NCBI GenBank assembly: GCA_001793095.1
Contig: MGHG01000012.1
Coordinates: 8,647-72,646, forward strand
From: Candidatus Woesebacteria bacterium RIFCSPLOWO2_01_FULL_39_23
GTDB lineage: Bacteria; Patescibacteriota; Microgenomatia; UBA8517
Direction of reading: 5' to 3'
Length of the DNA stretch: 64,000 bases
The position numbers were made by a program. Positions 12,001 through 24,000 of the stretch are shown here, one piece after another (the stretch's first letter is position 1; every line of letters begins with the position of its first letter).

Positions 12001-15000
12001 TTGCAAAGCAAATTGAACTCTTTATTAATTTTTTTAGATAGTAAATATTAAGTAAAATAAATTAATTGGAAGAAAATTTATTTCCGTTGAAATGCTGATT
12101 TATTTTTCTTCTAATTTCTCTTTCAAGGTTATCAACGGTTTTCATTAGGGGTTTATTTCCTTCGCGGATATAAACGATGATAACATCTTGTGGCCTTTCA
12201 GGATGTCTGGATTGTAGTTTTTGATGTGCTATAGCTTCATCGAGAGACGATGTTACTTGGAAGTGTATTTCTATACCGGCTTTTCTTACAGATACGTCAA
12301 TTCCCATATTGTCTTCATCTGATCCTTTTGGAAACTGCCGGTAACTATCAATAAATCCCTCAGTAATTAATCCGTTACACGCTTCACAAAACCTGTTTTC
12401 ATATAATAAGCCCATATGGTTTTTTGGATTTATATTAAGTAGCGTTTCTAACCATAACTTTGCATGTGTAGGAGTCGGTTGCCTTTCGCGTATAGACATT
12501 GTCTAATCTTCATTAGAAAGGTAGTGAGGTTATTGTGTAAAGAGGATGGTTATTACTATAATGAAGGTTCCACTCCTAAGTTTAGTTATACCTCTTGAAA
12601 GCTATTGAAATAATTTCCTTTAGCAGTTCTTCATAGCTTAAACCCGCTACCCCGGCGGAGAAAGGGAAATAGGAAGTTTTCGAAATATCTGGCGGAATCA
12701 TACCGGCCGGTGAATTAATCTCCAGAACATAGGGATTTCCACTACTATCGCAGCGAATGTCGATCCTACAGGAATCCTGTATTTTTTGTGCTTCCCAGGT
12801 TTGATAACAAATCCGCTCTATTTTTTGTTTAAGTTGTTCGTCAATTTTTGCCGGGCAAATAAGATTATTTTTTTCATGAGTTTCCTCAAAGTGCCATTTG
12901 ACTTCCAAGGAGTCGATTGGTAAGTATTCTTTGGGTAAAACGGAATGATCTGATTCGATAATAGGTAATATTTTAGGAGGATTGCCGAGCATCGGAACTG
13001 AAAATTCCCGGCCGTCCAAGAAAGGCTCGACTAAGGCGGGTTCATTAAATGTTTTTAGTATGAAGGCCACTTGCCTATCCAACTCTTCCCTATTATTAAC
13101 AACGCTTTTATTGGTGATACCTGCCGATGAACCTTGGGCGACTGGTTTGACTATGAGTGGGAAGTCTATTGTGCTTTTCAACTTGTCATCTTGCGAGGTG
13201 AATATTTGAAATGGAAGCGTTGGAACGTTGTTAGCCTGTAAAATTTCTTTTGCCCTGCCTTTGTTCATGGTGGTAGCTTGGGTTAACGGTGACGAGCCAG
13301 TATAAGGAATTTCGAGCATTTCGCACATTGCTGGAATATGACAATACCTATCACGACCATTCAGGCCGAGAGAATAGTTAAAAACAAGATCTATCTTTTT
13401 ACGATATTTATAAAGTTTTAAATAAGCTTTTTCATCCGCTTCTATGGGCAAAACTTTGTAACCTGCGGACTTGAGGTGTTTAATCATTGAGGTAATAGTA
13501 ACCGGATCGTCAAAGTCGGCTTCCTTGTGACTTTTTAGATCATTAGGATCAGGGTAGATATGCCGGACGTTATATGTAAAAGCAATAATCATCTAAATAC
13601 TCCTATTACATAACTTGTTCCCTTTGAGGAAGGATCATCTTTTAATAGAGATGCATGAGAACTATGCCATGTTTCCCACTTTGTCGTACCCTGGCTTTGC
13701 ATCGCTCTCAGAAGCATTGCAATTGATAATGAAGAATCCATATGATCGTCTTTATAGCTTAAAATGCTTTGATAGTCAAAGTTTGAAATAACGTTTATGC
13801 TTTCTTCGTTATTTTTCAAACCAGTGTCTTGCATAACATCATGGGCGAAGTCGACACTGGCGATATATAAAGTATCCTCTGGCATAATTGAAGTCAGGTA
13901 ATCAATCCTTTCATACAAATCGTTTTTACTGGCGAAAGGTGAGATGACAAGAGGTATTACAGAAGACTTGGGGAAATAATTGTTTAGGTAAGGTAAGTGC
14001 AATGTAATACTATGCTCTTTACTCACTATTTCACTCGAGGTGAGTATATCGGGAAATATATTTAACATGATATGCATTAAATTACTTTCAAAAGAGAAAC
14101 TTGAGATGTTTGTGGCAGTAACAACAGAATTAATATTAGGTTCAAAGTGATTTGGGCCGAAGATGACGATATGGGAGTAACTATTCCCTTTTAAACTTTC
14201 AAAAGAAGGCGAGATTATACTCTCGGCTAAATTGTGGTGCGGTAGGATTATTCCCCTTACGACGGGTTGGGAAGACGTTTCTATACCCGCAACTTGTCCT
14301 TGATGATATTTCGCATAGATTGCAGTCAGTAGTAGCCCGATTACAAATATAAATACCGAGAGTGCAATGTATATCTTTTTCATTTATATCTTGGTTTCAA
14401 AGATTTGTGCCTTCAATCGTCATTATTTCCTCCGGAGTGGTTTGGAAGTTGGATAGATAATTGTCAGACTGCATTATGGCGGGTTCAGCTATATAGTTAC
14501 CAACTGAACTGGCCCTGGCAAAATAATTTAAGTATTTTGATCCGTATTTTTGCCACCAAGGGGAGTTGCAAAAATATCCCTCGATGACATTGTTTTCTTT
14601 TTCACTAACAAAACCTTCCGTAGTTAACCCGTAAACTCCGGGATTCGAAATATACTTTAGTCCTGACGGCAGATGATCCGTGATAGTATAGCAACCGGTC
14701 GGCGACTTATCGAAATCCAGATTAAAATCAATTCTTACCTCCACGATTTCTCCGACTTTCATATTACCGCTTGCTTTTGAAATCTTTCTATATCTTCTCT
14801 TTATCTTCAGCAAATTATCCGTGTGTAGTTTCGCAACACCACTGGTTCCGATATAGTAGTCAAAATTCGCTTCTGCCTTACCTTCTAAAACGCTTAAGTT
14901 AAAATTCTTCAGATCTGCCGGAGTAAGATTAAGAGTGGTGTTTCTTCCTTTGATAAGATCTTTCTCGATGTTCTGTGTTGGGGAATGGAAGGCAAATTTT

Positions 15001-21000: not shown

Positions 21001-24000
21001 ATGTTTGACTTGTGGTGCATCCGGAAAAGCCTTAAGGTCTCCATCCCAGTCATAGCGCATCGAGGATTGGACACGAAGATGCGATATAGTTGCCGATATG
21101 GCGATTTGGAAAGATTGATAGAACCAATAGATATTGTATGCAAGTATGAAGTAAGCAACTACATTCGGAATTACGAAAATCCCCCAGTAAGGAAATAATA
21201 TTACGTTCCAGGAAACTACTCCGGGTAATATTTCGAGCAATCTTAGAACCTGCTTATCGTGATTGATTATGAAATTTCTTAATACTTTTGACATTTTACG
21301 TTTAACAATTGACTAATAACTGTAGAATGATTAACGATTATCCTAAAGTAATTTTCTTCGGAAAGCCGCTGTTTGATTAGCAAGCTTTTCAGCAGATTTT
21401 AAATACTTATTATGCAGGTCCTGTGTAAAATATTTGTCTAATAAAGCAATATCAAGACATGAAACAACCTCGTTAATAGATGTGTGTGATTTATTAAGAA
21501 AGTTAGCAAAATCTTTATCTGTGCTTCTATCCGACCCTTCTGCAATATTGAGAACTATTGAATTAGTTGCTCTTAAAATCTGGTTTGATAATAAATATTG
21601 TTCTGTTTTAGGAAACATATTTCTTACTAGTAACTTAACTTCTTTCCTGAACTGTAAAGAGTCAAGGTAGATTTGGAATTTTCTAAATCTAAGTTATTTT
21701 ATATTTTGATACATTTTTGTCCCGGAAGTTAATGGTTACATGTTAAATGTTTAAGGTATTCTTGGGAATAACGGTTCTGAACTTTTTGTGGTCGGTCCCC
21801 CAAATTGCTTTTCAATTTTCTCCGCAGTTTCCGGAAGAAATGGTTTTAAGTAGTATGCAATTTCTCTAATACTATGAATAAGATCGGATAATATATTTTT
21901 TTTCTTACTACCCTCTAATTTCCATACTTCGTTTTTATTTATAAGTAAGTCGCAATTGCGGATTGTTTCCCATACCGAGCCTAGAGCTTTATCAAATTCA
22001 TATTTAGAGCTGAAATTATTCCATAAATCGGAAGTATTGGATAAATGATTTGCTTTGTCATCTAAAGTTACTCCTTCAGACATTTTTGCCACCCTTGATA
22101 TTAGATTTCCGAGACCGTTGGCAAGATCAGCATTATAAACTTCTTTAAATTTGTCTTCCGAAAAATCTCCATCATTAAAGGGAGAAAATTTTGCCAGGAA
22201 ATAATACCTTAATGAATCTGCTCCGTATTTATCAATAAGCCAAGTTGGGTCAATAACATTTCCCAGCGTTTTACTCATCTTTTGGCCGTTAACAGTGAAG
22301 TAATCATGTACAAATATTTTTCTTGGAAGTTGTAGTTTGGCAGATAATAGAAAAGCTGGCCAATAAATTGCGTGGAATCTAAGAATTCCTTTACCTATTA
22401 CATGCACGTCGGCCGGCCAATATTTATTGTATTTTTCCTCGTCCCAACCAAAGCCAATACCTGATTGATAGATATTTAGAGCATCAAACCAGACATATAT
22501 TCGCTGAGTGTTATCATTGGGGACAGGTACTCCCCAGTTTTTCGCCCGTTCGTTAGTTCGCGAAATGCTAATGTCTTCGAGTCCTCTTTCAAGGAATGAC
22601 AAGACTTCATTCTTTCTTTTTTCCGGAATAATTTTTATTTCGTCGTTTTTAATAATTTCCAGAAGCTGCCTTTGGTATTTAGAAAGTTTAAAAAAATAAT
22701 TTTTTTCTTCGACCTCTTCTAATTTTTTGCCGGGATGCTCAAAGCATTCACCATTTTCATCCAGCTCTTCTTTTGTATAGAATGCTTCACAACCGACACA
22801 ATAAAGTCCTTTATATATTTTTTGATAGATATCATCTTTACATAGATTCCAAAGCTTTTGACTCGCAGGGTAGTGATGTTTTTGGTCGCTTCCTTTTTGC
22901 CAAACATCAAACTCAGCATTTAATTTGATTGAAAGTTGCCTGAAAAGCTCGGTATTATTATCTGCAAAACTCTGGATTGGAACCCCAGCTTTTTCAGCCG
23001 CCTGAACATTTTTCAATGCATTTTCATCTCCACCCGAGAGTGAAACAACATTTTCTCCAAGCAAACGATGGTAACGGGCAATTGTATCGGTTTGCACAAA
23101 CTCGAGGGCATGTCCTATATGCGGTGCCGCGTTAACATAAGGAATAGCCGCAGTTAAGTAAAATTTTCTGCTCATGAGGATATTTTATCACTCAAAACTT
23201 AAAACCACACACATGGGCGAGTAGATGTAGTTTTTTGAGAAAGCGAGACAACCTGTTTGAAGTTACTTATTTCTGTCCTCTTTGCAGACCACACTGTCCC
23301 ACATGTCATCATTTGGGTTTATGCTATAAATTGTTTTCCCGGGAATTTTATCTATAATTATCTTTAGTTGTAAACGAGGTCTTTTTTTTCGGCGAAAAAC
23401 TCCGCTTTCCCGTTCTCCGAATCCAACCACCTCATATGTATTTTCACCAACCAGAATATCCCCTTCCTTTAAAGGTCTTCCTATAGATGTCGCCAAATCG
23501 TTTGCTGATGGTGCCATTTTTGTATTATATTCTTAATTTCTCAATTAACAACTAAAATTAATTTTATCAAATCTCAATATCTTAGTCATTTTATTATTCT
23601 TCTAATTCTTCCCGCCCATTTATTTGCCCATTCTTCTGCTTCAACTTTTTTTAAAGCAAGTTTTACTCCTTCCTTGCCCATTAATTTTTTAACAGAGCCA
23701 GCTACTTTGGTTGAGACTTTTAAATTTTTCTTAATATTTTCGTAAGATCTTCCTTTTTTCAGCCAATAGGCAATTGCCAGCCTTTTAACGAGTGTGTCCA
23801 TTTCAGCAGCAGTTAAAAAATCTCGGAAAAATAGGTCAGCATCTTTAGCTTTATCTAAATCGGTAATTAATTGGATAAAAAGGCGTTTTATTTCTTTGGC
23901 TAAAGTTTTGTTAACAGGAGATTCGGTTTTTTTCATGGTTACCTAACCGAAGTATACCAGCAATCATTTCTTTGTTAAGTATATTTCGAAAGATAGAAGA

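Follow-up and report, generated by a model that had tools for sequence, protein, structure and literature searches.

Described macroglobulin systems and the Woesebacteria locus

Bacterial alpha-2-macroglobulins (A2Ms) have been divided into Type I proteins, which carry a thioester and are paired with PBP1c, and Type II proteins, which have no thioester and belong to the Mag operon; both were described from Gram-negative bacteria (PMC5764988). Once its bait has been cleaved, the Type II protein MagD traps a protease without a covalent bond, and its stability depends on operon-encoded partners (PMC5764988). Among the Patescibacteria (the Candidate Phyla Radiation, CPR), two large membrane proteins of Vampirococcus lugosii with A2M domains, Vamp_6_203 and Vamp_19_245, are described in the relevant passage as proposed protection against host proteases (PMC8080830), and a passage of a second paper reports giant homologues with A2M domains in Gracilibacteria, Paceibacteria and WWE3 (PMC9793634). 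From these passages, a transmembrane (TM)-anchored A2M in a CPR genome is already known. Here we describe a locus in a 64,000-nucleotide stretch of Candidatus Woesebacteria bacterium RIFCSPLOWO2_01_FULL_39_23 (contig MGHG01000012.1; the whole stretch is referred to as the window), where the gene for a 1746-aa A2M-like protein without a thioester is followed directly by the gene for a Memo-like protein, a pairing that recurs in related loci.

By the operon features that define the two types, the locus fits neither Type I (pbpC, CxEQ) nor Type II (mag operon). The best structural matches are the Type I proteins ECAM/YfhM of E. coli and Sa-A2M (5a42, 4u48 and 4ziu; E 3e-26 to 4e-26), which have collinear domains and a likewise outward-facing membrane anchoring, but the buried CxEQ thioester, the long bait region, the lipoprotein anchor and the pbpC neighbour of Type I are all absent here. 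In place of a lipobox, the window protein has a TM segment that follows a 65-aa tail. With the Type II proteins MagD (P. aeruginosa) and YfaS it shares an A2M fold without CxEQ, a predicted position on the outer face of the cytoplasmic membrane, and co-encoded accessory proteins. However, MagD is a Gram-negative protein from a six-gene mag/yfa operon, retains a bait region and associates with the membrane by way of its partner MagB, whereas the window protein has its own TM anchor, a short and partly invariant glycine loop, a Memo-like protein as sole constant partner, and relatives carried by Patescibacteria, Clostridia and Chloroflexota. Similarity to proteins annotated as YfaS is marginal (E 3e-15 to 2e-6 over 20–41% of the length), and no homologues of MagA-F are present at the locus; the Memo-like gene is the only constant neighbour over 27 loci.

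The Vampirococcus giants resemble the window protein as large membrane A2M-domain proteins of Patescibacteria, a comparison made at the level of domain-annotation descriptions only, and the passages at hand on these and other CPR proteins make no mention of thioester status, a glycine loop, a Hint insertion or a Memo partner. In the literature searched, which is incomplete and so does not prove novelty, we found no description of clade-wide coupling to an exported Memo-like protein, of an extension to Clostridia and Chloroflexota, of a TED that is retained although its thioester loop is deleted, of the invariant glycine loop, or of frequent Hint insertion at that loop.

Identity and architecture of the A2M-like protein

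The A2M-like gene and the parts of its product are as follows, in window coordinates and with the evidence for each in brackets.

14397..19637 (-): A2M-like gene, 1746 aa, with a tail, a TM anchor and an ectodomain of ~1650 aa (open reading frame, Pfam, AlphaFold/Foldseek, homologues)
19443-19637 (-): basic 65-aa tail ahead of the TM anchor (charge count)
19365..19442 (-): single N-terminal TM anchor, residues 66-91 (hydropathy and charge count; family alignment)
16464..16952 (-): A2M bait-region domain, A2M_BRD, residues 896-1058 (Pfam E 2e-7, 31.7 bits against 22.7)
16305..16352 (-): invariant glycine loop AEMGGGGGGDRDIFKD, residues 1096-1111, at the A2M bait-region position (18-sequence alignment)
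16083..16283 (-): A2M (MG7) domain containing LPDNITTWVTYAQAL (Pfam A2M, residues 1119-1185, E 9e-12)
15018..15728 (-): putative TED-like twelve-helix domain, residues ~1304-1540, without thioester (model helices, Foldseek match to 4ziu, MAFFT)
14400..15002 (-): C-terminal beta domains, the second half of CUB plus an MG8/bMG10-like domain (secondary structure of the model; bMG10 Pfam matches in homologues)

The initial annotation had recognised a 1746-aa A2M-family protein here, and this is borne out: LPDNITTWVTYAQAL occupies residues 1134-1148, within the Pfam A2M match, which scores 45.1 bits against a cut-off of 21. Profile searches, which it had proposed together with structure prediction, gave matches above cut-off to A2M, A2M_BRD, MG2 (residues 547-638; 34.0 bits, gathering score 32.8) and Big_5 (residues 222-316; 32 bits, gathering score 23.6) and a weak extra match to MG4, and the possibility it had raised of a protein without A2M-family profile matches does not apply. 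The A2M-family assignment stands because family-specific hidden Markov models match above their cut-offs, and the protein is a true member of the A2M/TEP superfamily, beyond a generic Ig-like fold.

The protein was modelled with AlphaFold as two overlapping pieces (residues 95-1120 and 1060-1746), each with an alignment of 17 homologues. The model of residues 1060-1746 (pLDDT 74, pTM 0.72; poorly modelled at its start) has, in order, beta domains, a twelve-helix domain and two more beta domains. Its top Foldseek match in the PDB is the ECAM segment from MG7 to the C-terminus (4ziu, E 4e-26, 670 columns), followed by full-length ECAM, Salmonella A2M, C3, C5, TEP1 and CD109. The model of residues 95-1120 (pLDDT 76, with a low pTM as expected of beads on a string) consists of beta-sandwich domains throughout, and its top matches are ECAM (5a42, E 3e-26, 955 columns) and Sa-A2M. 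Both halves of the modelled ectodomain thus find their best matches in ECAM and Salmonella A2M, in agreement with the family named in the initial annotation, and in these models the ectodomain is collinear with bacterial A2M from end to end, the TED-like helical domain included.

There are 17 full-length homologues at 39–64% identity, the nearest named relative (64%) being in a metagenome-assembled genome (MAG) of Woesebacteria. The family as a whole is large. With the C-terminal 687 aa as query, phmmer found 1601 matches at E<1e-3, 962 at E<1e-10 and 436 at E<1e-30 among 1.84 billion representative proteins (clusters at 50% identity), and the counts of CxEQ, anchors and Hint domains given below refer to the 112 full-length proteins among the top 150 of these matches.

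Pairing with a Memo-like gene

The gene that follows the A2M-like gene, on the same strand, is:

13589..14383 (-): Memo-like protein, 264 aa, with an N-terminal hydrophobic anchor at residues 1-27 (Pfam Memo, alignment to MEMO1, adjacency survey)

Its start lies 13 nt after the A2M stop codon. We surveyed the context of A2M-like genes in three homologues and 31 loci from a scan with one genome per species, searching six-frame ORFs (open reading frames) with the neighbouring proteins from the window; loci are referred to by number (e.g. L005) where they need to be told apart. Among the 27 distinct loci that have DNA downstream of the A2M-like gene, 26 have a Memo-like ORF that begins within ~50 nt of the A2M stop, mostly at 0–15 nt or overlapping it. 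One of these (L025) has an incomplete Memo-like ORF whose N-terminus is common with the intact gene of L026. The exception is L023, which has two bPH_2 proteins in place of the Memo-like one. The pairing is kept where A2M identity falls to 23–27%, in Saccharibacteria (L024, L026) and in MAGs of Ruminiclostridium/Oscillospiraceae (L028-L032). A reverse test gave the same picture, as all three Memo-like homologues followed up (39%, 31% and 27% identity) lie directly behind an A2M-like gene. The Memo-like gene is probably co-transcribed and translationally coupled with the A2M-like gene.

Two A2Ms outside the clade, P0020 and P0024, which are TM-anchored and carry a thioester, have no Memo neighbour; P0020 adjoins a class A penicillin-binding protein (PBP), the classical Type I association. 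On this gene-context evidence the pairing is specific to the clade, to which L038 and L039 belong, and does not extend to these outside A2Ms. Taken alone, the identity of the A2M-like protein and its pairing with Memo can be held with high confidence.

The Memo-like protein itself matches PF01875 (Memo; E 5e-14, 52.7 bits against a cut-off of 27) and TIGR04336 (60.3 bits against 26). In a HMMER alignment to human MEMO1, its PHH, GPNH and DFAH segments match the MEMO1 motifs that hold H49, H81, D189 and H192, and six residues (H49, H79, H124, D178, H181 and D216 in the window numbering) are invariant in 22 A2M-linked Memo-like partners from CPR and Clostridia. By alignment, then, these partners retain the His/His/Asp/His metal ligands of MEMO1. 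In the A2M-linked proteins an Asp takes the place of the region of MEMO1 Cys244.

The window protein shares with MEMO1 and AmmeMemoRadiSam protein B the Memo family domain and the conserved MEMO1 metal ligands, but canonical members are cytoplasmic and occur with AMMECR1 and a radical-SAM enzyme, whereas the window protein is anchored and coupled to an A2M. No AMMECR1 homologue was found among the window ORFs, searched with the Memo-AMMECR1 fusion of L001, a locus whose genome has this separate canonical fusion and a radical-SAM gene elsewhere, apart from the A2M-linked Memo. The name 'AmmeMemoRadiSam system protein B' given automatically to homologues is probably a misleading over-annotation.

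L024 has a fusion of the Memo-like partner with a PGA_cap domain of the CapA-like metallophosphatase kind (L024:13061-14362), and a separate PGA_cap gene adjoins Memo in L001 (L001:16047-17153) and L010 (L010:8343-9296), so that PGA_cap may be an occasional third component of the module in some lineages. Two roles considered for the Memo-like protein were rejected. It is no substitute for Hint in processing the loop (see below), as L024, L026, L038 and L039 carry both, and it is no substitute for the thioester, as L038 and L039 have Memo together with an intact YPYGCxEQ.

Loss of the thioester

The initial annotation had noted the missing thioester, and a motif scan agrees: C-x-E-Q is absent from the A2M-like protein and from its 17 close homologues. 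It is likewise absent from the distant relatives examined in Saccharibacteria, Clostridia and Chloroflexota, and from 110 of the 112 full-length representatives. Within the Memo-linked clade, L038 and L039 have an intact YPYGC(V/M)EQTTSR motif. Pfam TED gives no match in the A2M-like protein, and the TED-like domain is predicted from the structure model only.

A profile-profile alignment of the family with an ECAM-like protein covered only residues 528-1168 and could not map the TED region, and for this reason thioester-bearing members were used for the TED alignment. The C-terminal halves of thioester-less family members were aligned in MAFFT with those of the thioester-bearing L038, L039, P0022 and P0024, two ECAM-like proteins among them. 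In the window protein and every thioester-less relative, the GCxEQT loop aligns to a 6-residue gap, FCRS-GS/NRLEKQ (residues 1313-1324), at 23–30% identity but consistently over about 15 sequences. The alignment suggests that the TED domain was kept and the thioester loop excised. The segment NGGLSQVKWGG (residues 1357-1367) was considered as a degenerate thioester site, but its counterpart in canonical TEDs is the DGGWxWW toroid repeat, which lies downstream of the thioester, and the idea was rejected.

The bait position: a glycine loop and Hint insertions

At the bait position the ECAM-like protein has ~180 residues more than the A2M-like family in the profile alignment. The loop found there in the window protein reads HEPVITNESG-AEMGGGGGGDR-DIFKD (residues ~1088-1106, ~18 residues), with a variable first half and an invariant second half: A1096, E1097, G1100-1104, R1106, F1109, K1110 and D1111 are the same in all 18 aligned sequences. 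In these alignments only a short loop is left of the bait region, and half of it (AE-x-G5-x-R) is invariant.

In at least 27 of the 112 full-length representatives a 129-aa Hint (Hedgehog/intein-like) domain is inserted exactly at the glycine loop. Hint-bearing proteins number 33 in the top 150 when partial sequences are included, and 35 with two more that were found via source names. The interrupted loop has the pattern AE(G/K)GG|CFL-GT ... TxxH ... YVHN|(D/E/Q)KGG-R. The window protein has no such domain (Cys1, TxxH block, C-terminal HN), its loop being the continuous AEMGGGGGGDR. Among the surveyed loci, Hint insertions are present in L024-L026, L038 and L039, and Pfam PT-HINT, Vint and Hint match between A2M_BRD and A2M in the following four, whose position is equivalent to window 16305-16352:

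L024:7851-13061: Hint-bearing relative
L026:7734-13271: Hint-bearing relative
L038:3-3377: Hint-bearing relative
L039:2939-7999: Hint-bearing relative

In L038 and L039 the Hint domain occurs together with the intact YPYGCxEQ thioester. The +1 residue after Hint is mostly D, E or Q, and almost never Cys, Ser or Thr. Because of this, classical splicing is not expected, and autocleavage or processing of the bacterial intein-like (BIL) type would be the expected outcome. A-type BIL domains were reportedly found by Dassa et al. in 2004 to be able to splice without a +1 nucleophile.

The window does have a Hint element in another gene, for a UvrD-type helicase of 1401 aa with a C-terminal PD-(D/E)XK nuclease (AddA/PcrA-like; 26352-30557, forward strand). 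It is interrupted by an intein, with Intein_splicing and Hint matches at residues ~291-655, between the N- and C-domains of the helicase.

Membrane anchors

Residues 66-91 are the sole strongly hydrophobic segment of the A2M-like protein (mean Kyte-Doolittle 2.46), and the 65-aa tail ahead of them has 8 K/R against 3 D/E, which accords with the single TM anchor after a cytoplasmic tail given in the initial annotation. The anchor is kept in all 18 close family members aligned. Tail length varies from ~0 to 90 aa across close homologues, and the tail sequence is not conserved except for W-x-x-L-P-K-K-x-K (residues 57-65; window 19443-19469), directly ahead of the anchor. Among the full-length representatives, an N-terminal hydrophobic segment is present in 107 of 112 and a lipobox in five.

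Each of the 22 Memo-like partners starts with a hydrophobic anchor in CPR or an L-x-G-C lipoprotein-type signal in Clostridia, and the A2M-like proteins of the same genomes follow suit, with a TM segment in CPR and a lipobox in Clostridia. Because both products start in one of these two ways, both are predicted to lie on the outer face of the membrane.

Carriers and annotation

The A2M-Memo clade is carried by Patescibacteria, Clostridia and Chloroflexota, none of which has an outer membrane, and the pairing is seen across Microgenomates, Saccharibacteria and Oscillospiraceae/Ruminiclostridium. Carriers found via source names are all MAGs, with no cultivated organism among them. The background of the window is typical of Patescibacteria (low GC, a small methionyl-tRNA synthetase (MetRS) and a four-helix-bundle '23S IVS' protein).

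A2M-Memo loci that are 40–61% identical to those of Woesebacteria/Amesbacteria are also present in public MAG records labelled 'uncultured Gammaproteobacteria' (L007, L008, L012, L014, L018 and L033) and 'Atribacterota' (L010). These labels are hard to reconcile with contigs of CPR-like content and probably stem from errors in binning or labelling.

Public names for the A2M-like members are 'Ig-like domain-containing protein', 'hypothetical' and 'polymorphic toxin-type HINT domain-containing protein', and the system is invisible in databases because such names are generic or misleading. NCBIfam has no model matching either the A2M-like protein or the glycosyltransferase described below, and a PADLOC search with the A2M-like, Memo-like, glycosyltransferase and 145-aa proteins of the window gave zero matches.

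Genes around the module

The genes and the intergenic region flanking the A2M-like and Memo-like genes in the window are:

12582..13592 (-): D-Ala-D-Ala ligase, Ddl (Pfam and NCBIfam), with 4 nt shared between its start and the Memo stop
19638..19791 (-): 155-nt intergenic region between the family 2 glycosyltransferase (GT2) gene and the A2M-like gene, with a promoter-like TTGAGC-18-TAAAAT, a consensus match only, ending just ahead of the ATG
19792..21294 (-): membrane GT2, 500 aa (Glyco_trans_2_3, QRKRW; E 4e-11), a neighbour and no conserved partner

The GT2 gene is 155 nt upstream of the A2M-like gene on the same strand, and its product carries QRKRW at residues 346-350, much as the initial annotation had it. 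That annotation called it cellulose-synthase-like; the GT2 domain, the QxxRW motif and the hydrophobic ends (residues 16-56 and 418-482) are there, but likeness to cellulose synthase is not established, and a PDB sequence search returned nothing meaningful, with no match to the sequences of solved synthases.

In the window Ddl is probably on the same transcript as Memo. A Ddl homologue is downstream in the window and in L019 only, and Ddl is therefore no conserved member of the module. The other flanking genes encode a 145-aa protein, the '23S IVS' protein and the small MetRS, and no PBP gene is among the neighbours of the A2M-like gene in the window. The 145-aa protein, which is soluble and has no family match, is encoded downstream of Ddl in the window (12062-12499, reverse strand) and directly upstream of the A2M-like gene in L005 (L005:7515-7946); it is thus near the module in both, at differing positions.

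Possible functions of the A2M-Memo module

We tentatively favour, at somewhat less than an even chance, a two-gene envelope module in which the A2M-like protein acts with its Memo-like partner as a non-covalent trap or shield similar to MagD. By this analogy, the giant protein would be held on the outer face of the cytoplasmic membrane of a monoderm patescibacterium by its single N-terminal signal anchor. Its ectodomain, with the full bacterial A2M architecture predicted (an array of MG domains, the bait-region domain, MG7, CUB, the helical TED and C-terminal MG domains), would serve as a conformational trap or shield against proteases or other lytic enzymes arriving at the exposed membrane and wall. 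Scission might take place at the glycine loop, or the loop might be a hinge, and the Memo-like protein could be an obligate extracytoplasmic partner (a stabiliser, an anchor or an enzyme) in complex with it, comparable to the accessory Mag proteins or PBP1c. GT2 would be an unrelated neighbour. A non-covalent mechanism is favoured because the closest functional precedent is MagD, which has no thioester.

Several observations weigh against a trap or shield. A broad-spectrum trap would be expected to have a long and variable bait, and a loop of ~18 residues, half of it invariant, is quite the reverse. Conservation extends over the whole ectodomain (53% mean column identity in 18 sequences) and the neighbours of A2M-like genes are housekeeping genes (MetRS, Ddl, GreA, aminoacyl-tRNA synthetases), and because of this even conservation and neighbourhood a core envelope role would fit better than an arms-race factor. 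A2M biology does not account for a Memo-like enzyme. The TED mapping depends on a predicted model (pLDDT 74) and an alignment at 23–30% identity, and some locus-bearing MAGs are labelled Gammaproteobacteria or Atribacterota, so that a restriction to monoderms is unproven.

The main alternative, possible if on the whole less likely than not, is that the A2M scaffold now serves as a constitutive part of the envelope (a spacer, an organiser of the wall or S-layer, or an attachment factor), with the Memo-like protein, sometimes together with PGA_cap, modifying a polymer of the wall or surface. The deleted thioester loop, the lack of a variable bait, the high and even conservation and the housekeeping neighbourhood all fit such a role, as do the overlap of Ddl with the Memo stop in the window, the Ddl homologue downstream in L019, the Memo-PGA_cap fusion of L024 and the PGA_cap genes beside Memo in L001 and L010; Type I A2Ms are likewise tied to a wall enzyme, PBP1c (PMC5764988). 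However, Ddl and PGA_cap are each present in two or three loci, the Pfam search found no wall-binding domain, and a passive spacer would have no need of the complete A2M activation architecture (BRD, MG7, CUB, TED and MG8) that is kept. The initial annotation had instead suggested that the A2M-like protein and the upstream processive GT2 work together, the GT2 making an exopolysaccharide with which the protease shield would be associated. The two genes are on one strand and 155 nt apart, the GT2 has QRKRW and membrane segments, and a GT2 homologue is also near the A2M-like gene in the closest relative, L005. Nevertheless, the context survey found GT2 homologues within the fetched flanks of two of the 27 loci, those of the window and L005, and none in the other 25; in L005 GT2 is separated from the A2M-like gene by two other genes, and in the window the A2M-like gene has its own promoter-like site. 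The linkage is not conserved and looks like local synteny (MetRS-GT2-...-A2M) of two close genomes, and the survey leaves a joint unit highly improbable.

It is also very doubtful that the glycine loop is a programmed site of scission or ligation, at which covalent chemistry replaces the TED thioester. In this proposal Hint would make a Gly-Cys thioester in the relatives that carry it, an external enzyme would act on the glycine run in members without Hint, and the N-terminal part would be joined to a nucleophile of the wall, the host or the prey. In its favour, at least 35 of ~150 representatives have the 129-aa Hint domain exactly at the loop (GG|CF, TxxH, terminal HN), usually with D, E or Q at +1, and the loop is equivalent to the A2M bait region and to the beta-alpha processing site of C3. 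On the other hand, Hint is missing from the window protein; Hint and intein-like elements typically insert in conserved sites without functional meaning, and L038 and L039 combine Hint with an intact thioester, so that Hint is no simple replacement for it. A wider proposal, and quite an unlikely one, is that A2M-Memo would be a distinct surface machine of monoderms ('Type III'), with the thioester abandoned, the loop used for cleavage or ligation, self-activation by Hint through a Gly-Cys thioester in a quarter of members and other processing in the rest, and a redox or hydrolytic chemistry, new to macroglobulin systems, supplied by the Memo-like protein. If it were true, an episymbiotic CPR cell would have a means of covalent capture of, or attachment to, surface molecules of its host or prey, rather than a passive protease trap.

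The locus represents a third bacterial macroglobulin arrangement that is large and widespread (at least 436 clusters at 50% identity), self-anchored, mostly thioester-less, Memo-linked and carried by lineages that lack an outer membrane. It gives the orphan prokaryotic Memo family a concrete and testable partner. The A2M variants form a natural series (thioester plus Hint, Hint only, neither) that could reveal how a macroglobulin is activated without a thioester, and for CPR biology the A2M-like proteins belong to a short list of large, conserved proteins of the cell surface with a possible role in survival on a host.

Other features of the window

Rfam and tRNA scans of the window found nothing. 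An RHS-repeat protein of 2191 aa with a C-terminal DUF1554 is encoded at 57185-63760 on the forward strand and is possibly a polymorphic toxin or a surface protein. An envelope glycosylation cluster occupies 36981-46622 on the reverse strand and includes a DUF2298 membrane protein, two PMT-type (GT-C) glycosyltransferases and a secreted Ig/fn3 protein; MurJ is encoded near it, at 48817-50541.

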